A stretch of 64,000 bases of DNA from a virus (lineage: Duplodnaviria > Heunggongvirae > Uroviricota > Caudoviricetes). The DNA lies in IMG/VR virus record IMGVR_UViG_3300032007_000002; one strand, written 5' to 3'. Of this stretch, positions 1,770 through 57,156 are shown piece by piece. The position numbers and the translations under genes are program-made. Under the pieces are notes generated by a model, which did no database searches, was not told where the DNA came from, and was given only the letters and a program-made list of their open reading frames with translations. Numbering within the stretch: position 1 is the stretch's first letter; each line of letters opens with the position of its first letter.

Positions 1770-2731
1770 TGCGTTTCGATGCGGAAGGATATGTTCGCCT
1801 AGTCAATGCCCCGGAAACTGCCGGGGTTCTTTATGGACTGCTGGATGCGCTGGAAGAGAATTTTCCGGGTGCGGCCAGATTGGTTTCCGAGATACGCGGT
1901 GCGCTTTGGCGTTCTGCTGACAAGGTTCCGGTAGTTCCTGCGCAGATTGGAGCGTGGCCGCATATCAAGGTAGATGTTCCTATAACCGACCGGTGTAACC
2001 TTGCCTGTAAGGCATGCTCCCACTTCGCTCCCATAGCGAAGGATGCGCCAATGGTTGACCGTGAGGACATAGCGGCCTCGCTGGAACTGTTGAAACGGTC
2101 ATGCGGGGACATCGTGTTTACTGTATTCCTCATTGGCGGGGAGCCCTTGCTGCACCGTGACCTGGAGGCAATTATCCGGGACACCCGGAAAATCTTCCCG
2201 GACTGCGAACGTTATGTGGTCTCCAACATGCTGCTGTATGGCAGGTGGCGAGGGGTGTTCAGGGATCTGCTGCCTCAGACGGGCACGGCTCTCGGGTATA
2301 GCTGTTACGGGGAGGTCAACCGGCGCGTAATCGAGATTGCCCGCAGGGACAGCGAAACCTATCACTTCCCCTTTGTCCAGTTTGGAACCAATCCGCCGGA
2401 GTTCACCTCCTACTTGAAGAGCGCCGACCCGAAATATCCGGCCACCGGAAAGGCCGATTGCTACATGGCCAACTGCCCTACCCTAATCGGAAACTACCTG
2501 TATTTGTGCAGCCCGGTCTCATATCTTCAATATCCCAATGCCGCGTTCGGGATGAACTTGCAGGCGACCTGCTATGACCGAATAGACTTGCGCGAGGTTG
2601 AACATCCCGACGAGGTCCTTGTCCTAACCCGATTGCCGCATCCGTTTTGCCGTCACTGCAACGTAAAAGGCAACCACCCGATAGGATGGTCGCCAAGCAA
2701 GTGTGAACGCGGCGAGTGGTTCGAGGACTAG
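1766..2731 (+). CDS. radical SAM protein
   Basis: CxxxCxxC motif (CNLACKAC), GGEPLLH, C-terminal Cys cluster (CRHC); ATG at 1766 follows GAGG. Confidence 0.85.
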   Translation: MMRFDAEGYVRLVNAPETAGVLYGLLDALEENFPGAARLVSEIRGALWRSADKVPVVPAQIGAWPHIKVDVPITDRCNLACKACSHFAPIAKDAPMVDREDIAASLELLKRSCGDIVFTVFLIGGEPLLHRDLEAIIRDTRKIFPDCERYVVSNMLLYGRWRGVFRDLLPQTGTALGYSCYGEVNRRVIEIARRDSETYHFPFVQFGTNPPEFTSYLKSADPKYPATGKADCYMANCPTLIGNYLYLCSPVSYLQYPNAAFGMNLQATCYDRIDLREVEHPDEVLVLTRLPHPFCRHCNVKGNHPIGWSPSKCERGEWFED

Positions 2732-3390
2732 CCGAAGAATTTCGCGAACGCCTCGTTCATTACCCGCCAGTCGTTGTGGTGTTTCAGCCGCTCGTTGACG
2801 AGCCCACAGGCGCCATTGTGGAACTGGACGACGTGCGGGACTTCATGGAACAACGAGAGAATCTTGATGCCCTTTCGCTTCGCATACAGGTGGTAGAGCA
2901 GGTCGTCGTGGTATGACTGGCGAGACAGGCAGTAGTCTGCGATTGCCGCGAATACGTAGGGGTTGTATGCTCCGGGCGGATGCAGGGTCGCATATCCCCA
3001 GGGGATCCCGTCGCCTACGGTCTGTGCGATGATGCAGCCGGGGTTCTGTTTCCACTTGTTGTAGAGTTCCCCCGCGTAGTCATATTTGTATAGGCAGTCG
3101 TCATCCGCGCTTATGATGGGGAGGTCCGGGTAGGCCTTCATTGCGAAGATGATTTTCTTGTAGGGCTTGTAGTTCTTGTGGACCCAGAGTATCTGGACGA
3201 CACCGGTTTTCGCGAGCGCTTGCAGGTCAGCCGGCAGCTCGGCTTCTTTCCGCGGGAACTCTTCGTCGGACAGGGTGAGGACTACCTTGAAGCCCTTGCA
3301 GTGTTTCAGTATGCTGAAAATCGTGAGGCCCACTCCCTTGATGCGGGCTTTCCACGAAGTCAGCGCGATTATCCCCTTTATGTTTTCCAT
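2728..3390 (-). CDS. glycosyltransferase-like protein (GT-A fold)
   Basis: LTSWKARI, PYKK, IISADDD (DxD) and HDD motifs; paralog of 10133-10828. Confidence 0.65.
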   Translation of the reverse strand: MENIKGIIALTSWKARIKGVGLTIFSILKHCKGFKVVLTLSDEEFPRKEAELPADLQALAKTGVVQILWVHKNYKPYKKIIFAMKAYPDLPIISADDDCLYKYDYAGELYNKWKQNPGCIIAQTVGDGIPWGYATLHPPGAYNPYVFAAIADYCLSRQSYHDDLLYHLYAKRKGIKILSLFHEVPHVVQFHNGACGLVNERLKHHNDWRVMNEAFAKFFG

Positions 3391-4512: not shown

Positions 4513-5046
4513 ATGCCGTCGAGTTTCGAGACATTCCTCGAAACGGTGCGCGGCAAGCTCGGTGAGGAATGCTACGACAACGTTTGCCGGAGATACCAGA
4601 CGTATCTTGAAAACTGCGCCCCTCCCCCGTTGAGGGTCCCGGACTCCATGCGTGCGAACGCGATGGTCTGGGGGTATTCCGACATGCTCAACATCCTCAC
4701 CCCGTCGGGTGCGGTTGACGGGAACGACTGTACGGGGAAGGCATATACCAACCCCAACCAGCCCGCGCCGTCGATGAAGGACCAGAGCGGGCAGATTGAC
4801 CCGAAGAACTGGGAACACCCGAAGTTCAAGAAGCCTACGCACCTGACGTCGATACCGATCAGGAAGATGATGGAACGCGCACAGTCGCACATCAAGCAGC
4901 CGATGGAATTGGCGAACGCGAGCCAGGTATATCCGAACAAGGTCGGGCCGTTCTCGGGCCGCGACGGGTATAACGTTCCCGTGAGCACCTACGTCGGCGG
5001 GGATTCCAGCAGCTCGGCATCCTCGTCCGCATCTACATCGGAGTAG
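4513..5046 (+). CDS. hypothetical protein
   Basis: 177-aa ORF coupled to the upstream gene. Confidence 0.6.
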   Translation: MPSSFETFLETVRGKLGEECYDNVCRRYQTYLENCAPPPLRVPDSMRANAMVWGYSDMLNILTPSGAVDGNDCTGKAYTNPNQPAPSMKDQSGQIDPKNWEHPKFKKPTHLTSIPIRKMMERAQSHIKQPMELANASQVYPNKVGPFSGRDGYNVPVSTYVGGDSSSSASSSASTSE

Positions 5047-6512: not shown

Positions 6513-8387
6513 ATGGGCGCCTATAACGGATATGATTATGACATGGGCAGTGCGCTGCTCGAAATGGACAGCATCCTGCTCGAAGCGGGGGAAAGGCCTG
6601 TCTTCGTGGAGGCCGATACCGGAACCTCGGCAGATCCGGCTCCAGACGCCGGGGCGATGTCCCAGGCGGTGTGCGACTGGCTCGCCGACTTTGTAAATTC
6701 CGATGACGGCTGGGGCTACCTGGCCGCGAAACGCAGGTCCGGCAAGCTCGACGTGACAGTCGATGTCGGCGGAGTTACCATCCATGCGGACAACGAGCAC
6801 GAGAAAGGCTCGCCGACGAACTCGAAGGCCCTTGAAGTCAAGGACGGCGAGGTGTTTATCGGCCCGCGCAAGCTGATGGCATCCATCCTTTCTGCAAGTA
6901 TCAACGAGCTCATGGAGCAGGACAAGGATTCCTCATTGCAATCGGCCATCGTCAGCGTCATCCGCGGAGATTCCGCGAAGGGGAACCTGAACGTGAAGTT
7001 CAAGAAGGCCATCGGGGACTTTATCTCCGGCAAGCGCCCGAAGCCGGCCCCGCAGAAGCAGCAGCAACAGCCTGCGTCCCTGCCCGACCGCGTGTGGGCG
7101 TATCTTACCTCCGATGATGCGACCAAGAATAGTGGTCTCGGTGTGGATGCCAAGAATGGCCGGAACGACGGCGCACAGGAAATGCAGCCTGACTTCTATG
7201 GCGAACGCGACATCGACCGCTTCATCCAGGAAACTGCCCAGAAGGACGGCGTTGCTGTCGATCCGGCAACTGTTACGGATGACGATAAGAAGGCTATTCT
7301 CGCCCATCTCCAGAAGGTCGTGGCTGCGGTCAATGAGCTCTCTTCCGACGAGATGTCCGGGGACGATGCCACTGTCGGCAAGTATGTGACTGCCCACCTG
7401 ACAGGAGCCGGGAACGGTACCGGCAAGACTGACGGGCAGGGTGAGAACGGAGACGAGAACGACTGGGCGAAGCAGCTCTGGAAGTTCCTCCTTTCCGATA
7501 ACCAGGACAAGAACCGCATGCTCGGCCAGGACTGCCATCAGGCACGCAAGGCCGATACGCAGGTCGGCGATGATATCTACACCGATGACGCTATCCGGGA
7601 ATACATGACCGTGATGGCCGATGCGAACCCGTCGGAAATTTCCGGCTCGGCTGACAGCATTTCCGGTGCCGACGTGGACGCCTGTCGCGCCGTGATGGGC
7701 AAGGTTCCGCCTGCAATGAACCGTGTTACGCCTGAGCAGTATAACCGCAATGATGTGGAGCTCGGTGCGATTATCACCCAGTACCTTACTGCCGGTGATG
7801 CGAAGAAGGAACAGAACAACGGCATGAAGTCGGTCACTCCGGCAGCAATCATGCGCGGGTTCGAGGCATGGTATTTCGGCCAGTGGGTCCGTACCCGCGA
7901 CGAGGCCGTCAAGCATGTCGAGCGCCTGTTTAGCGGTTCCCCGTTCAGCAGCGATTCCAACGTCAGGAAGCAGATCAATTCCCACGACATCGCGAGCGGA
8001 TTTGCCAACGAGAACTATGTGGCCCGGACGGTCAACGAGTTCAAGGAGGCGATGAAGTCGTCCAAGAACGAGAAGGTAATCCCGGCGATGGACGGCAACG
8101 TGATGATGGCCATTGGCAAGTTCTTCAGCAGCACCCTTCCGGCACGCTACATGAAGCTCCGCCAGGCGGTCCAGGGCGTGGTCGAGAAGAACCCGAAGGC
8201 TGCGAAGGAATGGGAGAAGATTCCTCGCCGCGCAGCTGCGTTCGTTGACAACCGTGTCGATGCCTTCACTACCGAGAAGGTTGGCGGTAACAAGGGTGGC
8301 TGGCTTGAACAGATTGCCCAGGCTACCGAGCGCGTGAACAATTCATTCGGCCTCGAAAACGAGAAGCCGATTGCGGGGTTGAAATGA
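6513..8387 (+). CDS. hypothetical protein with internal repeat, possible internal virion protein
   Basis: Long ORF; N-terminal LLEM/LLEA/FVEA sites; duplicated ~130-aa unit. Confidence 0.65.
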   Translation: MGAYNGYDYDMGSALLEMDSILLEAGERPVFVEADTGTSADPAPDAGAMSQAVCDWLADFVNSDDGWGYLAAKRRSGKLDVTVDVGGVTIHADNEHEKGSPTNSKALEVKDGEVFIGPRKLMASILSASINELMEQDKDSSLQSAIVSVIRGDSAKGNLNVKFKKAIGDFISGKRPKPAPQKQQQQPASLPDRVWAYLTSDDATKNSGLGVDAKNGRNDGAQEMQPDFYGERDIDRFIQETAQKDGVAVDPATVTDDDKKAILAHLQKVVAAVNELSSDEMSGDDATVGKYVTAHLTGAGNGTGKTDGQGENGDENDWAKQLWKFLLSDNQDKNRMLGQDCHQARKADTQVGDDIYTDDAIREYMTVMADANPSEISGSADSISGADVDACRAVMGKVPPAMNRVTPEQYNRNDVELGAIITQYLTAGDAKKEQNNGMKSVTPAAIMRGFEAWYFGQWVRTRDEAVKHVERLFSGSPFSSDSNVRKQINSHDIASGFANENYVARTVNEFKEAMKSSKNEKVIPAMDGNVMMAIGKFFSSTLPARYMKLRQAVQGVVEKNPKAAKEWEKIPRRAAAFVDNRVDAFTTEKVGGNKGGWLEQIAQATERVNNSFGLENEKPIAGLK

Positions 8388-48608: not shown

Positions 48609-49046
48609 ATGTCCAAGTGGTATCGTCCGATCGAGAACGGCATCATGACGCTACCCGAGGTTGCGGTCGGCTCAAACAACTACCTGATGTACCTCAACGG
48701 GAAGTACCAGGTGTTTCCGGTGAGCATGTATTTGCCGATGGGATGGTGGATTGGCGTAGGCGCATGGCTTGACATGCCGATGGGCAAGTACGAGACCCCT
48801 ACGTTCCTCGGCAAGAATACCGACTGGGTTTCTGACGACCAGCGTGGCCGTTGGCGCAGGTTCTCCACGGCGCCCCTGCATGCGGAACCGGATGATGCCG
48901 TGATGGTCTATTATGACAACCCCGGCCAGGAAGTCTATTTCATGAAGGTGCGTGAGGCGAACGAAAAGTTTGCCGGTAAATCCGATGTGTGGTGGTTTGC
49001 CGAGCGCGTAATGCCGTTCGGCAAGCTGTTGGAAACGCCGGCATAA
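48609..49046 (+). CDS. hypothetical protein
   Basis: Operonic; Trp-rich. Confidence 0.55.
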   Translation: MSKWYRPIENGIMTLPEVAVGSNNYLMYLNGKYQVFPVSMYLPMGWWIGVGAWLDMPMGKYETPTFLGKNTDWVSDDQRGRWRRFSTAPLHAEPDDAVMVYYDNPGQEVYFMKVREANEKFAGKSDVWWFAERVMPFGKLLETPA

Positions 49047-49078
49047 ATTTGTATTTTCCGTGCATAGGAGATACAACT

Positions 49079-50392
49079 ATGTACGGAAAAAGCCTCGCGC
49101 ACGTAGAGCGCATCAAGGAAGTGCACGCCATCGAGGGTGCCGACAACATCGAACGCGTTACCGTTCTCGACTGGAACCTGGTCGCGAAGAAGGGTGAGTT
49201 CAAGCCCGGTGAACTTGCCGTATATGTGGAAATCGGGTCTATACTCCCGGACGGCCTCGAACCGGCCGACCGCGAACAGTATGCCAGCCTTGCCAAGATT
49301 GCGTCCGAACACCGCCGTCGAGAGAACGCGGTGAAGAAGGCGCAGGAGAAGGGCAAGCCGCTGCCGGACTTCAGCGGCCTGGACGTACTGGAACCGCTGG
49401 AAGTGGTCACGAAGGCCATGGAAGAAATCCAGGGCCGCTCCAAGTACCCCTACTTCGAGTTCCTGCGCCCGATGAAGTTCAAGATCAAGACGAAGGTCCT
49501 TAACCGCTTCAAGGTGATTTCCCAGGGCATCCTCTTCCGCCCGGACGTCCTCGGCATCGCGCCGGAGGAAGTGAAGCTGGGTGCGGACTTCACCGAACGC
49601 CTCGGTATTACGGAAGTCGTCGAGGATGCCGAGGAGGCCGGCGTAGTCGAGACGCCGAAGCCGGGCCTCTTCGGGTGGATTGACCGGAAGCTCATGCGGT
49701 TTGCCATCTACCGTTGGCTCCGCAAGGACACCGACAAGGCCGAGTGGCTCCCGTTCTTCCCGGCGAAATCCGACGAGGAGAACGCGCAGAAGATCTACTC
49801 CGGGATGTACGAAGCACACAAGGACGAATGGTTCGTCGCGACGGAGAAGCTGGAGGGCCAGTCCATCTCCATCTGTACCCGGGACGAGCGGTTCCTGTTC
49901 TTCTTCCACCGCAAGAAGCTCTATGTCGCGTCCCGCACCCGCAACCTTCCCTACAAGTCCTGCAAGAACATGCAGTTCTGGAAGACCGTCAAGCGCGGCG
50001 AGTTCGACAAGCGTCTCGCCAAGGTTCCGGGCGAATGGTTCATCCGCGGCGAGCATGTCGGACCCGGCATCCAGAAGAACATCTACCAGCTGGACCAGAC
50101 CGACATCCGCATCTACGATGTCATGCCGTTCAACAAGGAGACCGGGCGGTTCGACAAGCGCCTCAACTATGAGGACACGCTCAAGTTCTGCGCCGACCAC
50201 CAGTTCGACTATGTGCCGGTTATTGACGACCACTTCCGCCTGCCGGCCGATGTACAGGAAATGCTCCGCATTTCCAACGGCAAGACCGTGTTCGGCAAGG
50301 ATCTCAAACACGCCCGCGAGGGCCTGGTGCTCCGCCTGAGAGACAACTACTCCGTCTCGTTCAAGGCGAAGTCGCCGGAATACGAACTCTAA
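49079..50392 (+). CDS. ATP-dependent RNA ligase (DRB0094-like)
   Basis: N-terminal IEGADNIE and SQG; motifs TEKLEG, SR, IRGE, YDV, EGLV, FKAKS. Confidence 0.85.
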
Positions 50393-52234: not shown

Positions 52235-52780
52235 ATGCCCGAGTTTTCCAACAGCCCGCTAGTATCGTTTACCCAGCTGTCCCCGAACTGTAACAAGAAA
52301 CGGACCCACGCCATCGACACGGTGACAATCCATTGTACCGCCGGGCAGAGGACCGTGGAGCAGCTCGGTAAAACGTTTGCCCCGGCTTCGCGCAAGGCGT
52401 CGTGCAACTACGCGATCGGAAGCGACGGGCGCGTGGCACTCATCGTCCCGGAGGAATCCAGGAGCTGGTGCAGCAGCGACGCGTCAAACGACCACCGGGC
52501 GGTAACCATAGAGGTGTCGAGCGACGATAAGACCCCCTATGCGGTGAACGATGCGGCATACGCGTCCCTCATCTATCTGGTGGCGGACATCTGCCGTCGC
52601 AACGGCATAGCGAAACTGCTGTGGAGACACGACAAGTCGCTGGTCGGCAAGACGGACAAGGACGGGAAGCTGGTGCAGAACCTCACGCTTCACAAGTGGT
52701 TCGCCAACAAGGCGTGCCCCGGGCCGTTCTTGGAAGATAGGATGTTCGACATCGTGGCCAAGGTAAACGCGCTACTGTAA
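52235..52780 (+). CDS. N-acetylmuramoyl-L-alanine amidase (Amidase_2), endolysin
   Basis: TIHC, ASCNY, SWCSS, TIEV, HKWFANKACPG; TATAAACT upstream. Confidence 0.9.
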   Translation: MPEFSNSPLVSFTQLSPNCNKKRTHAIDTVTIHCTAGQRTVEQLGKTFAPASRKASCNYAIGSDGRVALIVPEESRSWCSSDASNDHRAVTIEVSSDDKTPYAVNDAAYASLIYLVADICRRNGIAKLLWRHDKSLVGKTDKDGKLVQNLTLHKWFANKACPGPFLEDRMFDIVAKVNALL

Positions 52781-53179
52781 GATTTTTGGGAATATGGCGT
52801 GACAACTGTTGAAGTTTTTGCTATATTTCATTACGGAGAGGTCCGAGAGACCTCTTGAAGATTGAAAGACGCGGCATGGATTACTTTGCGGTTACGTAAA
52901 AACCGCACGTTCCCGGTAACGTTATCCGGGCAACAAGATATTCGGGGCGGTGGGTGCCGGCTACCTAGCCGGAGGGCTACCGTCCTACCTCTTGTGGATG
53001 GCACTGTCCATCCAAAAAGACCTTCCTGTCGGAGTAACTCGTGGGCGGAGCCGGCTTACTCGCGGCGAAACCTAAACGAGGCAGGGGGCCTTTTTGGGCG
53101 GACAGCCCATGAATTTGACGACTTCGGGGTATGCGGGAAGTTCCCGCAAGTGCTGCCCCGCTGTCGGACGTGTTTGTAT

Positions 53180-53251
53180 TGCCCGTTAGCCAAGTGGTAA
53201 GGCAGAGGATTCTGAATCCTCCATTCGGTGGTTCGAAGCCATCACGGGCAA
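53180..53251 (+). tRNA. tRNA-Gln (CTG), CCA not encoded
   Basis: TGCCCGT/ACGGGCA acceptor, GCCAAGTGGTAAGGC D-arm, GAGGA-TTCTGAA-TCCTC, GGTTCGAAGCC. Confidence 0.92.
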
Positions 53252-53264
53252 CTACAATAATCTT

Positions 53265-53628
53265 GGGGATGCTTTGGTTTCGACTGGGTATCAAGTTACC
53301 AAGACCTCACCCGCAGTTGGTCTATGGCTGCGTCACAAATGGACCGAAAACACAAATGCCAACAACAGTGCATTCGCCTATCGCGCTGCCGCCTAATCAG
53401 TAGCGGCGTGATTGCCCGGAACAAGCGGAAGGAATAAATTCCGGGACCAAGTGCATATCTTCCAGATTTAGCCGTGAGTTACTGGTCGTAGATCGGCTAT
53501 CTTATACTGGACCAGGACCCCTCTCGGGTAGATCCCCTTGTGGCTTAGGTAGAGCCCTAATAGATTGATGGTGATACGGTTGACGCGATGAGGTATTTAG
53601 GACAGGGGTTCGAACCCCCTCATCTCCA
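53265..53628 (+). ncRNA. ssrA: tmRNA; tag peptide ANNSAFAYRAAA (53358-53396)
   Basis: 5' GGGGATG...TTCGAC, 3' GGACAGGGGTTCGAACCCCCTCATCTCCA with G3:U70; tag ORF ending in AAA-stop. Confidence 0.92.
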
Positions 53629-53827
53629 CGAATTTTCGTCCTGCTGTCGGTAGGACCGCCCTCCAGCACGGGGTAGATGTGGGTGACCGGCTCCGGGTGG
53701 AGCGGCATGCCACTAAGGCAGCGGACACCGTCTTTCCATGCCGCGTCTGTAAAACTGCGGTGCCTCACCCGGCGGAGCGACAAGCGTGTCGCAGAACCCG
53801 GATGGCTAAGCGGTGGCAACGGTTGGT

Positions 53828-55281
53828 AAAAAGTGGTCGCATGAACATGCCCTTTAGATCGTGGGCGAGAACCGCCGATAGTAAATGTAATAAATAAATT
53901 ACATATTAAAGCAACTAATTCATATTTTATTTGAGTTGAATGCTATAAACTTTAATTGAAGTCAAGAAATTTAACATGGAAGCAGTAAGAAGCGAAGATA
54001 CGAAGGCCAAGATACGGGCGAGTATGTCCGCAACAAAGGCCAGACGGCAGACACAAGTCTGTCGAGTATTCGAGCTGAAGGTTTCCATACGGCACAATCC
54101 TAAGTCGGTGTTCGATAAGATGTCCCAATGCTTCAAGGAAGCGAAGTGGGTAATTAACGACATGCTATCGTTGTCCAAGGATAATCCAGACAATAGCATG
54201 TTTGACTACAAGTACACCGATCATAAGGATGTTGTTCATTACGACAAGGACAATAACCCAGTCCATTCTTCAATTACATTACCGTCGGTACTTCACAGGG
54301 CAACTGTAGCACAAAAGAGGACCGACATAGTGAACTTGGCTAAGGCCAAGTCACACGGAAGAAAGATTGGCGCACTGAAGTTCAAGCGGCAAGTGGACTG
54401 CATACCTATCATTACTGGGTTCACGCAGATTATTGACGGGTGTAGGCTAACCATACCGGGGTTCACGAAAATCCGGGTCAACGGACTGAACCAACTGCAC
54501 CAATTTGAACAGTTTGAAATAGCTGATGCCAAGCTGGTTCGCAAGGCAAGCGGCTACTATGTGAAGATTAGCATAATGCTACCGAAATCATCAAGGAAGC
54601 CTACCAACCGAGAGGTTGGTCTTGATTTCGGTATAAAGGATTCCATAACGACATCAAACGGAGACAAGTACAACTGCAAAGTGCAAGAATCGGAACGCCT
54701 GAAGTACCTTTCACGAATGTTGAATAGGCACAAGACCGAGAAGGGTTCCAAGCGGCGATGGAGATGTAAGTGTCAACTGGCTAGGGAGCATGAACGATTG
54801 GCTAATAAACGGAAGGATATTGCCAATAAGATATACAACCGGCTAGTAACCGATTACGATGTTATCTACTTTCAAGACGAGCAGATTAAGAACTGGCAGA
54901 AAGGGTTGTTCGGTAAGTCCGTGCAGTCTTCCTGTCTCGGTTCGCTGAAACAACGACTTGTCGCTCTCGAAGCGAGTGGACGTAGTTTCAAGATTTCTAA
55001 GTGGGAACCCACTACAAAGTTGTGTCCGATGTGTGGCTGCATAAACCACCCGACGCTTGCAGACAGAATCTACAAGTGCGACTGCGGATATACTATGGAC
55101 AGGGACACCCATTCTGCCCGTGTGGTCTTGGTGATTGGCTCGTCTAAAAGAGCCGAGTGCGTGGAACACGCCTCCGCTGAGGTAGCCGCCTCTATGCCTA
55201 CCAGTTCTACTGGGTTAGCACAAGTGGCTCCGTTGAAGCGAAAACTCGAAGCTCATGCCCTTTAGGTCGTGGGTAGTTCAC
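53828..55281 (+). mobile_element. non-autonomous IS200/IS605-family (tnpB-only) element
   Basis: Subterminal hairpins CATGCCCTTTAG(A/G)TCGTGGG at 53846-53865 and 55254-55273 (19/20 identical); right end GTAGTTCAC; lower GC; left boundary approximate. Confidence 0.8.
53976..55265 (+). CDS. tnpB: TnpB RNA-guided endonuclease
   Basis: RuvC-I GLDFG, RuvC-II YFQDEQ, TTKLCPMC...CDC zinc finger, RuvC-III DRD. Confidence 0.9.
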   Translation: MEAVRSEDTKAKIRASMSATKARRQTQVCRVFELKVSIRHNPKSVFDKMSQCFKEAKWVINDMLSLSKDNPDNSMFDYKYTDHKDVVHYDKDNNPVHSSITLPSVLHRATVAQKRTDIVNLAKAKSHGRKIGALKFKRQVDCIPIITGFTQIIDGCRLTIPGFTKIRVNGLNQLHQFEQFEIADAKLVRKASGYYVKISIMLPKSSRKPTNREVGLDFGIKDSITTSNGDKYNCKVQESERLKYLSRMLNRHKTEKGSKRRWRCKCQLAREHERLANKRKDIANKIYNRLVTDYDVIYFQDEQIKNWQKGLFGKSVQSSCLGSLKQRLVALEASGRSFKISKWEPTTKLCPMCGCINHPTLADRIYKCDCGYTMDRDTHSARVVLVIGSSKRAECVEHASAEVAASMPTSSTGLAQVAPLKRKLEAHAL

Positions 55282-55345
55282 GGGCGACTTGTGTTGCTTC
55301 CTGGCGACCTAACGGGCCGGGAATGAAAAGGATATCGCAGCAACC
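55282..55345 (+). ncRNA. probable 3' remnant of the large ncRNA; also the predicted TnpB guide region
   Basis: GTTGCT...AGCAAC stem enclosing TTCCTGGC/GCCGGGAA with a CC-TAAC-GG tip. Confidence 0.4.
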
Positions 55346-55359
55346 ATTTGGGAACCGAC

Positions 55360-55911
55360 ATGGGAACAAACCACTACGTCAAGATAGGCAAGCGAGGGCT
55401 GATCCGTGCAATCAAGGGTGGCCCTTATTCTAATGTTATGGCGCAGTATGGGCTGTTTACCCCGGTCAGCGGTTCCATTTATGAACGCGCCAGGCAGCAA
55501 GCCAATTACATGATGGAACATGCTGGCAAGCGTAACGGGTCCAGGGCTCCGCTTACACTGCATGTGGGCAAGAGCTCGTGCGGATGGCGATTTTCCCTCC
55601 ATTACATTCCGGGACTGTGCGAAACCCTGCGCGACTGGGAACAGATCTTCGCCAACGCGCTGAAAATCGTTGACGAGTATGGAACCGAGGAGACCCCAAA
55701 CCAGCTTATCAGGACGATAACGCGGCGCGGAATACGCTACGGAAGCACCTATGGCGGCAAGCCCCAGGAACCGTCCCCGGAATTTCTAGCGGAGAACCAT
55801 GCCAGGTGGGATGCCGAGAACGGACTGCTGCGGCATGATGACCGCATAACAAAGTCCTCGCCGGACGGGGTCACCTATGACTTGATTGACGACGATTCGC
55901 AGTCATGGTAA
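55360..55911 (+). CDS. hypothetical phage protein
   Basis: MGTNHY...HVGKSSCGWRF...IVDEYG. Confidence 0.65.
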   Translation: MGTNHYVKIGKRGLIRAIKGGPYSNVMAQYGLFTPVSGSIYERARQQANYMMEHAGKRNGSRAPLTLHVGKSSCGWRFSLHYIPGLCETLRDWEQIFANALKIVDEYGTEETPNQLIRTITRRGIRYGSTYGGKPQEPSPEFLAENHARWDAENGLLRHDDRITKSSPDGVTYDLIDDDSQSW

Positions 55912-55992: not shown

Positions 55993-57156
55993 ATGACTGA
56001 GACTGAAAAGAAAGTTCGTGAGACCGGGACGCTCGTAGTCAAATGCGTCGTCGGTTCCCAGGCGTTCGGGCTTGCCACGCCGACCTCGGATATTGACATC
56101 CGCGGCGTTTACGTGCTCCCATACAAGGAATGGCTCCGCAGGGAACCCGCCCTGCAGATTGCCGACGAGAAGAACAACGAGGTTTACTGGGAAGTTACCA
56201 AGTTCATCAAGGAACTTGCGAAGTTCAACGCCCAGGCGCTTGACCTCCTCTACAGCCCGGACCACTGCATCATCGAAGGCAAGGATTTCCTCGAAAAGCT
56301 CCGCGGCAAGATGGGCGGCTTCCTTTCCAAGCAGTCACAGAAGCCTTTCGTGGAATATGCCCGCGGGCAGATCTGCAAGGCCAAGGGCCTCAACAAGAAG
56401 GTTTTCAACCCGAAGCCGCTCGAACTCCCGAGCCTCCTCGAATACTGCTGGGTTCTTGACGATACCAGAGGCCCGGCTACGCCCATGCTCGAATGGCTTG
56501 CGAGCCGTTCGGTAACCGAACGCGACCAGAAATGGTATGCCGCGGCGAAGGTGGAGCATATCCGTGGCGGATATGCGCTGTATCACCAGGATCCGGGAGC
56601 GGGCTATATCCCGTCGGGCAACGGCGTGATTGAACGCCCGGAGCATGAATGGCGCTGGGCCTACGGCATCGTCCGCGACGAGAAGAAGAGCTGCGAAATC
56701 CAGCTGAACAGCATTCCCAAGAATGCCACGCTGGTTGCGCATTTCATCTTCAACCAGGACCATTATTCCCAGGAGTGCAAGGAACGCGCCGAATACCGCA
56801 GATGGATCAAGGAACGCAATGCCGAACGCTATGCGACCACATTGAAGCATGGCCACGGCTACGACTCCAAGAACATGATGCACTGCATCCGCATCCTGAT
56901 GACTGCGCGTGACCTCGCCAGGACCGGCAAGCTGATTGTTGACCGTTCCGCCGACCGCGAGTTCCTGCTTGGCATCAAGAACGGCATGTGGTCCTACGAG
57001 AAGGCGATGGAATATGTCGATAACCTTATCGAGGAGACCAGGATCGCCTACGAGCAGTCCAGCCTCCCGGACATCAAGTACAGCCAGGATTCCATCGACG
57101 AATGCTGTTTCGACTGTGTGGACATGGTGAACGCGGCGGGGAGGAAGAATGGCTAA
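55993..57156 (+). CDS. DNA polymerase-beta superfamily nucleotidyltransferase (RlaP/YcgL-like)
   Basis: GSQAFGLATPTSDIDIRG, YDSKNMMHCIR, LLGIKNG. Confidence 0.85.
   Translation: MTETEKKVRETGTLVVKCVVGSQAFGLATPTSDIDIRGVYVLPYKEWLRREPALQIADEKNNEVYWEVTKFIKELAKFNAQALDLLYSPDHCIIEGKDFLEKLRGKMGGFLSKQSQKPFVEYARGQICKAKGLNKKVFNPKPLELPSLLEYCWVLDDTRGPATPMLEWLASRSVTERDQKWYAAAKVEHIRGGYALYHQDPGAGYIPSGNGVIERPEHEWRWAYGIVRDEKKSCEIQLNSIPKNATLVAHFIFNQDHYSQECKERAEYRRWIKERNAERYATTLKHGHGYDSKNMMHCIRILMTARDLARTGKLIVDRSADREFLLGIKNGMWSYEKAMEYVDNLIEETRIAYEQSSLPDIKYSQDSIDECCFDCVDMVNAAGRKNG

Follow-up and report, generated by a model that had tools for sequence, protein, structure and literature searches.

Large islands of tRNA and tmRNA genes occur in huge phages, and to our knowledge it is not known how these long untranslated units are expressed and matured. 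The RNA island studied here (~52799-55347, + strand) belongs to a rumen huge phage, of which a 64-kb stretch was analyzed (the window), and has genes for RNA ligase, ThyA, DHFR and an endolysin around it. It raises the question of what role the structured non-coding sequence bracketing its tRNA and tmRNA genes plays. The original prediction saw in this sequence a ~600-nt scaffold of the GOLLD or ROOL kind carrying the tmRNA as cargo, and named as alternative a processing stem like those of rRNA operons. The promoter, leader, tRNA-Gln, tmRNA, junction element and 3′ arm form one stable-RNA transcription unit, whose features are listed in Table 1.

Table 1. Features of the RNA island, in coordinates of the window.
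Feature	Coordinates	Strand	Evidence
Sigma70-type promoter	52799..52827	+	10/12 consensus matches, TG present
5′-terminal hairpin, CGAGA pentaloop	52836..52856	+	fold and compensatory changes
Invariant single-stranded box GAAGATTGA	52857..52865	+	same in all leader-bearing lineages
Closing helix, 5′ arm	52867..52880	+	exact complementarity, relatives, precursor fold
Leader hairpins D and E	52887..52934	+	compensatory pairs
Rest of structured leader domain, several hairpins	52935..53179	+	fold, partial alignment with relatives
tRNA-Gln (CTG), CCA not encoded	53180..53252	+	ARAGORN, Rfam
One-piece tmRNA, tag ANNSAFAYRAAA, CCA not encoded	53265..53631	+	ARAGORN, Rfam
New conserved junction element	53638..53726	+	covariation; 3′ of phage tmRNA
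Closing helix, 3′ arm	53735..53748	+	exact complementarity, relatives
Lineage-specific 3′ spacer, left part	53749..53825	+	unsupported as structured RNA
TnpB-only IS200/IS605-type insertion, strain-specific	53826..55279	+	Pfam domains, empty sites
Lineage-specific 3′ spacer, right part	55280..55347	+	reaches to downstream ORF, ATG ~55360

The promoter predicted upstream of the hairpins was confirmed. It is composed of GTGACA, a 17-nt spacer, an extended TG and TATATT, and the relatives have TTGACA/TTGACG/TTGCCA-17-TAYATT at the same place. Transcription is inferred to start near 52833-52835. The promoter type suggests a host outside the Bacteroidota. The 5′ flank (52830-53180) has a folding energy of -152.6 kcal/mol compared to -128.5 +/- 6.6 kcal/mol for shuffled sequences (z -3.6; none of 100 shuffles was as good). 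This fold includes the back-to-back hairpins originally proposed; one of them, GGGGCGGTGG/CTACCGTCCT, loses two pairs in the related record G001. In the related loci the 5′ arm is always preceded by the same arrangement of sigma70-type promoter, hairpin with CGNGA loop and box. Compensatory changes are found at four of the seven pairs of the 5′-terminal hairpin while its loop is conserved, and the box (also GAAGAUUGA), identical in every lineage bearing the leader, lies at the foot of the closing stem. The 5′ arm is followed by a multi-hairpin domain of about 300 nt. It begins with hairpin D (TGCGGTT/AACCGCA; two of seven pairs compensatory) and hairpin E (CCCGG.../...CCGGG; six of eight pairs compensatory), the latter with a conserved AACGWTA loop. 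Its remainder can be partly aligned with the syntenic relative L048 and more weakly with L057, L038 and L053, and has lineage-specific insertions. What the relatives broadly have in common is limited to the initial ~105 nt of the leader and to the 89-nt junction element. A 1-nt indel relative to G001 at about 53086 argues against a coding leader. The original prediction was right in taking the flanks for non-coding structured RNA. Judged by its compensatory changes, the leader is a new covarying motif, absent from Rfam.

Both stable RNA genes were identified as predicted. The tmRNA is full-length: it scores 88.6 bits against RF00023 (threshold 47), covers model positions 1-374 and has a tag frame. 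The additional TTGTA/TACAA stem on which the tRNA was described to sit is present with 5 bp, but is lost in L048. In two strains from RNA libraries the slot 53176-53258 is filled by a diverged block of equal length. Bovine rumen RNA libraries yielded contigs with an identical tmRNA, and RNA-library contigs span the unit without tnpB. Two bovine runs (X7 and X10) gave only tmRNA pieces (53281-53666 and 53262-53607), about a third of the sampled words was found in seven more (X6, X8, X9 and X11-X14), and a contig of X4 has an end at 52862, adjoining the 5′ arm. Because these data are assembled contigs, missing cover and contig ends are no sign of instability or processing.

The tmRNA is followed by the junction element (~89 nt), found just 3′ of the phage tmRNA across the relatives and as one copy per phage in the four records searched whole. 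It is a three-way junction, cloverleaf-like if a 3-bp GGU/ACC hairpin forms, and has a 5-bp stem with the invariant 7-nt loop YCAGCAC. Eight of its 26 pairs show compensatory changes (0 of 500 shuffles), which identify it as a second new covarying motif missing from Rfam. It shares with tRNAs and tRNA-like punctuation elements the closing stem, the 5-bp stem with 7-nt loop, a further arm around the junction and the position right after a tRNA-like gene. Unlike in a tRNA, T-loop and D-loop motifs are absent, and P1 has nine predicted pairs with a 2-nt interruption. ARAGORN made no tRNA call for it and no Rfam tRNA match was obtained even at E<=10. The element was not found in a sample of 5 + 151 Bacteroidaceae genomes, the host possibly belonging to another phylum. 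Neither junction element nor leader showed consistent complementarity to the tmRNA of the phage or to rrn loci of Bacteroidales.

The two ends of the unit are complementary. AGACGCGGCATGGA (5′ arm) is the exact reverse complement of TCCATGCCGCGTCT (3′ arm), giving the 14-bp helix around tRNA-Gln and tmRNA that the original prediction described. Two non-palindromic inverted repeats of at least 14 nt within 3 kb occur in the 64-kb window, the arm pair being the longer, and none of 2,460 other 40-nt windows in a surrounding 12.5-kb stretch equals the cognate 3′ arm in pairing with the 5′ arm. Both folds computed for the 996-nt precursor (z -5.7), MFE and centroid, contain the helix. Covariation of the helix, proposed as a check, was found in eight related rumen huge-phage loci whose arm sequences differ by lineage but remain complementary. 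The syntenic L048 (about 78% identity) has TGACATTGTG-GTGTGGAAAA/TTTTCCACAC-G-CACAATGTCG, a 20-bp helix with one bulge. The arms of G002 are TGTCGGAAGCGTT/GACGCTTCCGACA, with a span of 4 kb, and those of L055 form 15 bp with one mismatch. In L057, where CATGTC-GGATGCTTTT/AGAAGCATCC-G-GACATG spans 6.7 kb, GGAAGC/GCTTCC is changed to GGATGC/GCATCC. Helices of 16-17 bp are found in L061 and L053 over about 7 kb. Two variants of the 3′ arm, 53742 C>T in G001 and 53747 C>T in RNA-library X1, both yield G.U pairs. Cognate duplexes have energies of -21 to -32 kcal/mol, compared with -9 to -18 kcal/mol when the window arms are paired with arms of other clades (G002, L055, L057, L061 and L053). In five of the eight loci no site of the entire locus (8-14 kb) is a better partner than the cognate 3′ arm; it is rivaled by one or two further sites in G002, L055 and L057. 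A helix search without gaps failed to detect the bulged helix of L048 and, taken alone, has only marginal significance. From this comparison of sequences we conclude that the closing helix is under selection.

The position of the 3′ arm is conserved as well. In all loci the RNA island ends with it: it is found just upstream of a terminator and the next promoter (G002, L055), directly after the last tRNA (L057, L061, L053) or ~10 nt upstream of the AUG codon of the next ORF (L048). The cargo enclosed by the helix varies, with a single tRNA plus tmRNA (0.9 kb) in the smallest unit and more than 15 tRNAs (about 7 kb) in the largest. The junction element is ~8 nt from the 3′ arm in the window and in L048, whereas kilobases of tRNAs separate the two in other lineages.

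Sequence 3′ of the arm has a different character. The tnpB ORF (53976-55265) codes for the Pfam OrfB_IS605 domain and a Cas12f1-like TNB domain, and empty sites (GGTTG|ACGGG) are found in G001, L062, X1 and X4. In three DNA records of relatives and in two contigs from RNA libraries, position 53825 is joined directly to about 55280. The domains, the presence/absence polymorphism and the precise boundaries assign the element to the IS200/IS605-type TnpB insertions and confirm that it interrupts a once-continuous sequence. Its empty sites indicate a later strain-specific insertion, downstream of the stem and outside the design of the RNA operon. The 3′ spacer in its tnpB-free form shows no excess stability (z +0.24) and is absent from L048, so that the structure thought to resume beyond tnpB was not recovered. 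Of the ~200 more structured nucleotides expected after the tmRNA, only the junction element and the 3′ arm stand.

The distribution of the unit was also investigated. blastn against 50,697 phage records gave no match, and synteny via the endolysin led to 28 related loci besides G001, none of which has a homologous RNA region in the corresponding place. G001 also provides the sole match of the 187-aa protein encoded downstream. Matches to 16-mer leader patterns in IMG/VR were chance matches, as were most of those to a combined promoter and box pattern.

An operon-closing stem akin to the processing stems of rRNA operons is the best explanation of this organization, one that we consider reasonably probable and in which cleavage is inferred. 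The comparative data thus favor the alternative of the original prediction, and the variable length of the enclosed segment fits such a stem and not a fixed ornate scaffold. Pairing of the arms closes the whole unit into a loop and would bring both termini of this long untranslated precursor together, as do the stems flanking 16S and 23S in rrn operons. The stem would then protect the ends, or mark a site of double-strand or adjacent single-strand endonuclease cleavage that parts the stable RNAs from flanking mRNA. Release of tRNA-Gln and tmRNA would subsequently require RNase P, trimming of 3′ ends and addition of CCA. The 5′ hairpin probably stabilizes the 5′ end, and the box adjoining the 5′ arm may be a site where the RNA is cleaved or a factor binds. 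Most tentatively, the junction element may serve tmRNA 3′ maturation as a module for punctuation or recognition. Conservation of the leader loops and of the junction element exceeds the needs of a passive stem, which probably reflects further roles.

The established precedent is provided by the RNase III duplexes that flank 16S and 23S (PMC8708148). As in the rRNA operons, a segment of the 5′ leader is complementary to sequence 3′ of the stable RNAs, pairs with it over kilobases and undergoes compensatory change; a hairpin close to the promoter and a conserved box directly precede the 5′ arm, and tRNAs are embedded in the enclosed precursor. The phage unit differs in being phage-encoded, in enclosing tRNAs and a tmRNA but no rRNA, in helices of 13-20 bp with a cleavage that is presumed, and in a box GAAGAUUGA that is unlike rrn boxA. 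With 13-16 bp, several of the closing helices fall short of the about 20 bp of classic RNase III substrates. A search of four incomplete phage contigs revealed no gene for RNase III, and a host enzyme would thus be needed. T4-type tRNA clusters comprise co-transcribed stable RNAs of unknown function and resemble the rumen phage unit in being polycistronic and carried by a large lytic phage, in having extra structured RNAs between or by the tRNAs and in processing by host RNases, presumed for the rumen phage. For T4 we know of no description of a helix that closes the operon, of a conserved box in the leader or of a junction element linked to a tmRNA.

The leader may in addition have a nut-like function in antitermination or as a chaperone, a possibility compatible with the operon-closing stem that we put forward tentatively. 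The 5′ hairpin and the GAAGAUUGA box would bring host Nus factors or a protein of the phage to RNA polymerase, block Rho termination over kilobases of RNA that is not translated and tether the 5′ arm until synthesis of its partner. Leaders of rrn operons carry boxB-boxA-boxC, and their antitermination complex tethers the leader until its partner is made; the order hairpin, box and 5′ arm parallels this arrangement. Box and loop are invariant while the stems covary, the untranslated units reach about 7 kb, and L061 has a second promoter-proximal copy of the leader, with the same 5′ arm, upstream of its first tRNA block. Against this reading, a boxA matrix built from 60 distinct Bacteroidales rrn sites (GTTCTTTGAAAGA...), which may not represent boxA of the phage host as this is perhaps not a member of the Bacteroidota, gives the phage box a rank of only 8th to 401st in its own locus. 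No enrichment of the exact box was seen among 103 rrn leaders, and the box-binding protein is hypothetical, with no candidate identified. The host-leader sequence GAAAGATTTACAT resembles GAAGATTGACAT by eye, a suspected boxA mimicry that failed the matrix test.

It is unlikely that the flanks compose a two-piece ornate ncRNA, in which RNase P and 3′ processing would free tRNA-Gln and tmRNA and leave a ~345-nt leader and a trailer (junction element and 3′ arm) held together by the closing helix as a large RNA with a function, possibly oligomeric like GOLLD and ROOL. Members of these two families have a large multi-junction architecture of about 580-800 nt. The unit studied here resembles them in its phage context, rumen origin and adjacent tRNA genes (tRNA-Gln adjoins the leader) and in being a hairpin-dense non-coding RNA of several hundred nucleotides. 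The leader is indeed a multi-hairpin RNA that is conserved, also in its loops, and covaries, and the short distance of the junction element to the 3′ arm in the window and L048 would suit a joint structure. GOLLD and ROOL are phage-associated and found near tRNAs (PMC5737381), and RNA-only assemblies are described for them in a preprint (bioRxiv 10.1101/2024.12.08.627333). However, the scan of the flanks against Rfam that the original prediction called for, including the tnpB-free allele, matched no family. At gathering thresholds GOLLD, ROOL, OLE and RNase P were unmatched in the window; at E<=10 the four had no match on 52700-55450, 52800-53185 or the tnpB-free 3′ flank of G001; and none of the four had a match in the eight related loci. 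Permissive matches on the flanks and the tnpB-free allele (mir-885, Pab19, snoTBR5 and Pospi_RY) were at chance level, and an RNase P-like reading of GCAGAACCCGG/ATCCGGGC made by eye found no Rfam support. The kilobases of tRNAs between junction element and 3′ arm in other lineages mean that no fixed 5′ plus 3′ architecture is conserved, and the window sequence 3′ of the arm is not detectably structured and is missing in L048. A fixed multi-junction architecture of the GOLLD/ROOL type is not found among relatives whose spacing and content vary from 0.9 to about 7 kb, tRNA and tmRNA being operon genes and not scaffold inserts. The scaffold with tmRNA cargo is accordingly not supported.

Leader and junction element could also be functional RNAs themselves, either with leader and trailer as a helix-joined two-piece ribonucleo-complex or with the cloverleaf-like element as an RNA cofactor or decoy in trans-translation, an idea that we regard as rather improbable. 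The element with the YCAGCAC loop always lies beside the phage tmRNA, and no SmpB gene was found in the four incomplete phage contigs. Finally, that the arms are terminal inverted repeats of a mobile tRNA/tmRNA cassette, acting as DNA and forming no RNA helix, is very improbable: the island is a hotspot of mobile DNA (tnpB here, an HNH ORF in L048, HEARO in L037, a group I intron in L055) with a cargo that varies among relatives, but the non-Watson-Crick pairs on the transcribed + strand are six G.U against one C.A (judged by eye on the helices), the 5′ arm is located within the transcript after conserved promoter, hairpin and box and not at a cassette boundary, no transposase is associated and the flanking genes are syntenic.

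The operon-closing stem provides a testable design rule for the RNA islands of huge phages, composed of a conserved leader hairpin, an invariant box and a stem that spans up to about 7 kb. With the covariance models R1 and R2 of the motifs absent from Rfam, such islands can be annotated and delimited. Should processing take place at the stem, phages would have independently adopted the rRNA-operon solution for production of tRNAs and tmRNA. If the leader or the junction element is active itself, it would link phage RNAs to ribosome rescue, and huge phages would then carry a new RNA machine that controls ribosome rescue or the maturation of stable RNAs.

The tRNA-Gln and tmRNA that the original prediction placed whole within a larger structured transcript were both called by ARAGORN and Rfam (see the table below). 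The 5′ flank is as structured as had been claimed, its stability exceeding that of its shuffles (z −3.6). A 1-nt indel relative to the nearest phage record, G001, within its only sizeable ORF argues against coding. The window promoter is of the sigma70 type with an extended −10. The extra TTGTA/TACAA stem attributed to the tRNA is not retained in the syntenic relative L048. A diverged block of equal length (83 nt) takes the place of tRNA-Gln (slot 53176-53258) between unchanged flanks in two RNA-library strains from sheep rumen, a replacement that suggests cassette-like tRNA exchange. The flanking phage genes also include thymidylate synthase and DHFR. The RNA operon is bracketed by the genes of an RNA ligase and of an RlaP-type nucleotidyltransferase, and CCA is encoded by none of the RNA genes; the bracketing enzymes suggest a tRNA/tmRNA repair or CCA-related module.

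Features of the RNA unit, its surroundings and related loci (window positions unless a locus is named)
Feature	Position	Description
RNA ligase	48989-50392	PHA02142 OB-fold and RNA_ligase domains
Amidase endolysin	52235-52780	
Closing helix, 5′ arm / 3′ arm	52867-52880 / 53735-53748	14 nt
tRNA-Gln(CTG)	53180-53252	ARAGORN and Rfam
Complete one-piece tmRNA	53265-53631	ARAGORN and Rfam
Junction element	53638-53726	
Junction element, closing stem		GUCC-U-GCUGYC/GGCAGN-GGAC
Junction element, second helix		invariant 5-bp stem, 7-nt loop YCAGCAC
Junction element, third helix		variable hairpin
tnpB element	53826-55279	
RlaP-type nucleotidyltransferase	55993-57156	downstream of the RNA unit, along with a 187-aa ORF
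Closing helix, G002		13 bp; span 4 kb; 3′ arm then terminator and next promoter
Closing helix, L055		15 bp, one mismatch; span 4.7 kb; 3′ arm then terminator and next promoter
Closing helix, L057		16 bp, one bulge; span 6.7 kb; 3′ arm immediately past last tRNA-Ser
Closing helix, L061 and L053		16-17 bp; span about 7 kb; 3′ arm immediately past last tRNA-Ser
HEARO / group I intron loci	L037:2737-2965; L055:4117-4381; L005:1113-1339	HEARO in L037, group I intron in L055

G001 is an IMG/VR contig of 172 kb, estimated to be 45% complete, with 96-97% identity across the region; nucleotide searches of phage records and endolysin synteny gave no relative beyond it. The phage record G002 was recovered via a tmRNA search in related contigs. 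Directly 3′ of its tmRNA, a 49-nt stretch shares 90% identity with the window, against only 74% between the two tmRNAs; used as a search pattern, this stretch retrieved two more IMG/VR loci and 13 metagenome loci. L048, on a 473-kb metagenome contig, has ~78% identity to the window and the order DHFR, endolysin, leader, tRNA-Gln, ~900-nt insert, tmRNA, junction element and downstream ORF. Its insert (oriented copy about 2404-3300) lies in the tRNA-Gln to tmRNA interval, inside the stem-closed unit, and carries an ORF with a putative HNH-like motif (HHILPKSLGG) assigned by eye. The phage gene neighbourhood, the large contigs of the relatives and the presence of the window sequence in sheep and bovine gut libraries therefore identify this as a huge phage of the rumen.

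The inverted repeat predicted to close the unit is exact. Across the whole window just one other non-palindromic inverted repeat of at least 14 nt has its arms within 3 kb of each other (4581-4595 / 7022-7036; 15 nt, 93% complementary). The cognate arm outpairs all 2,460 alternative 40-nt partners of the 12.5-kb neighbourhood, and the helix appears in the MFE and centroid folds of the 996-nt precursor. It covaries in relatives: the L048 arms differ from those of the window at homologous positions with complementarity kept (TGACATTGTG-GTGTGGAAAA / TTTTCCACAC-G-CACAATGTCG; 20 bp, one bulge). More distant lineages each have a complementary 3′ arm where the RNA island ends, and GGAAGC/GCUUCC in G002 is changed in a compensatory manner to GGAUGC/GCAUCC in L057. 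Cognate arms form duplexes of −21 to −32 kcal/mol, and window arms combined with those of the other clades (G002, L055, L057, L061, L053) form duplexes of −9 to −18 kcal/mol. In five of eight loci the cognate arm outranks every other site of the locus as a partner; in the other three, one or two sites tie with it. A second exact copy of the 13-nt G002 3′ arm, GACGCTTCCGACA, is found in a protein-coding ORF 2.3 kb past the RNA island (L043:7606-7618); the leader may pair with the mRNA carrying it, or the copy may be due to chance.

The start of the leader is common to distant lineages and comprises, in order, a promoter (TTGACA-17-TAYATT), a CGNGA-pentaloop hairpin whose stem covaries, an invariant box (GAAGATTGA) and the 5′ arm. 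Its first ~105 nt (hairpin 1, box, locally unpaired 5′ arm, hairpin D and hairpin E, whose loop AACGWUA is conserved) are conserved in both the window clade and that of L057/L038/L053. Compensatory changes affect 13 of 25 pairs and the observed covariation score was reached by none of 500 shuffles; selection on the structure of the leader is clear. Its covariance model (R2) has a second, weaker match with the same 5′ arm preceding the first tRNA block of L061, and a further copy elsewhere in the phage record G007. Leader modules of related phages are adjoined by ~80-nt tRNA-like elements (GGGGSCSCATGTTCCAAGG...GGATTCGATTTCC...TTCCA; L061:345-423, two copies in L053, L213:1422-1505 and 1637-1715) with a G3.U70 acceptor stem, a T-arm and discriminator A, and without an anticodon arm. 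ARAGORN made no call for the two L213 copies. Judged from sequence, these elements may be alanine-accepting mini tRNA-like RNAs.

The junction element follows the phage tmRNA in 17 of 17 loci, inside tRNA islands, after a gap of about 21 nt or about 126 nt. It folds as three helices around a junction, with compensatory changes in 8 of 26 pairs and a covariation score reached by 0 of 500 shuffles; pairing collapses to 35-51% in slid registers. Its covariance model (R1) found exactly one copy in each phage record searched whole (G001, G002, G007, G008), one in every island locus searched, and none in the 156 Bacteroidaceae genomes searched. Two different ~100-nt structured insertions, one closed by GCATGCATG/...GCATGCATC and the other by ATATGTGC/GCACATAT, occupy, by lineage, the exact same spot in the tmRNA-junction element gap (window 53629-53633; L041, L045, L053, L055; G002). 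One sheep RNA-library strain of window type has a 109-nt insertion there, as in the L041 and L045 lineages.

At least part of the stretch is present in each of thirteen RNA libraries, which come from several studies of the rumen. Contigs of two sheep studies run from the leader through the tRNA slot, tmRNA, junction element and 3′ arm into the downstream ORF and lack tnpB; being assembled contigs, the library data show presence and not RNA ends or relative stability. Structure had also been proposed on both sides of the tnpB element. The uninterrupted form of the segment 3′ of the helix (53749-53825 plus 55280-55347) is not stabler than its shuffles (z +0.24), and L048 lacks the 3′ spacer sequence, its next ORF beginning about 10 nt past the 3′ arm. 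The tnpB element is missing from G001, locus L062 and two RNA-library strains, which leaves a clean GGTTG-ACGGG junction; given this empty allele, a guide of the element would match the uninterrupted allele. The element is TnpB-only and has 20-nt near-identical direct repeats near its ends (CATGCCCTTTAGATCGTGGG at 53846, CATGCCCTTTAGGTCGTGGG at 55254), of which the one at the right end shows complementarity to the flank 55305-55317. In relatives, the RNA islands contain or adjoin HEARO RNAs (121.6 and 125.2 bits) and a group I intron (55.4 bits); the RNA island is a homing-element hotspot.

The same leader and end-pairing enclose varied cargo, from one tRNA and a tmRNA in the window to more than 15 tRNAs and a tmRNA in L057, L061 and L053, and the enclosed units also house mobile inserts (HNH-like ORF in L048, HEARO in L037, group I intron in L055). 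The helix thus belongs to the transcription unit as such and not to one fixed ornate fold. A ~600-nt GOLLD/ROOL-like scaffold with tmRNA as cargo had been favoured originally; neither flank matched any Rfam family, even at E≤10 and with short sub-regions and the tnpB-free allele included. The rRNA-operon-like processing stem named as its alternative fared better, processing being a use that we infer. In rRNA operons the 5′ strand of the stem comes after boxB and boxA. RNase III cleaves the duplexes that leader and spacer segments form around 16S and 23S (PMC8708148). This pairing of end segments around enclosed stable RNAs is the closest known design to the phage unit, and the region is therefore read as a stem-closed stable-RNA operon. 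A literature search turned up neither an operon-closing stem of this kind nor this leader or tmRNA-linked junction element, and Rfam 15 contains none of the three.

A nut-like antitermination or tethering role is attractive for the hairpin and box. The box was not recognised by a Bacteroidales boxA matrix, whose group may not be that of the host: the canonical TTGACA promoters suggest a host outside Bacteroidota, so that the Bacteroidales boxA would not be the right comparison. The 103 Bacteroidales rrn leaders inspected (L087-L206) share a layout of TAnnTTTG-type promoter (TACCTTTGCA), hairpin, boxA GTTCTTTGAAAGA, then AAGTAGTACAAGA and AACCGTCAA, which is a useful reference for host-type rrn leaders. 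That leader and trailer persist as a two-piece ncRNA is rather improbable: the structural selection on the leader would fit, but no combined 5′ and 3′ architecture is kept across lineages. Transposon ends acting at the DNA level are an unlikely origin of the arms, as the non-canonical pairs on the + strand (six G.U and one C.A, helices read by eye) favour pairing in RNA over inverted repeats in DNA. In the stem-closed stable-RNA operon the pairing of the ends is established, and the closing stem would serve processing and/or end protection.
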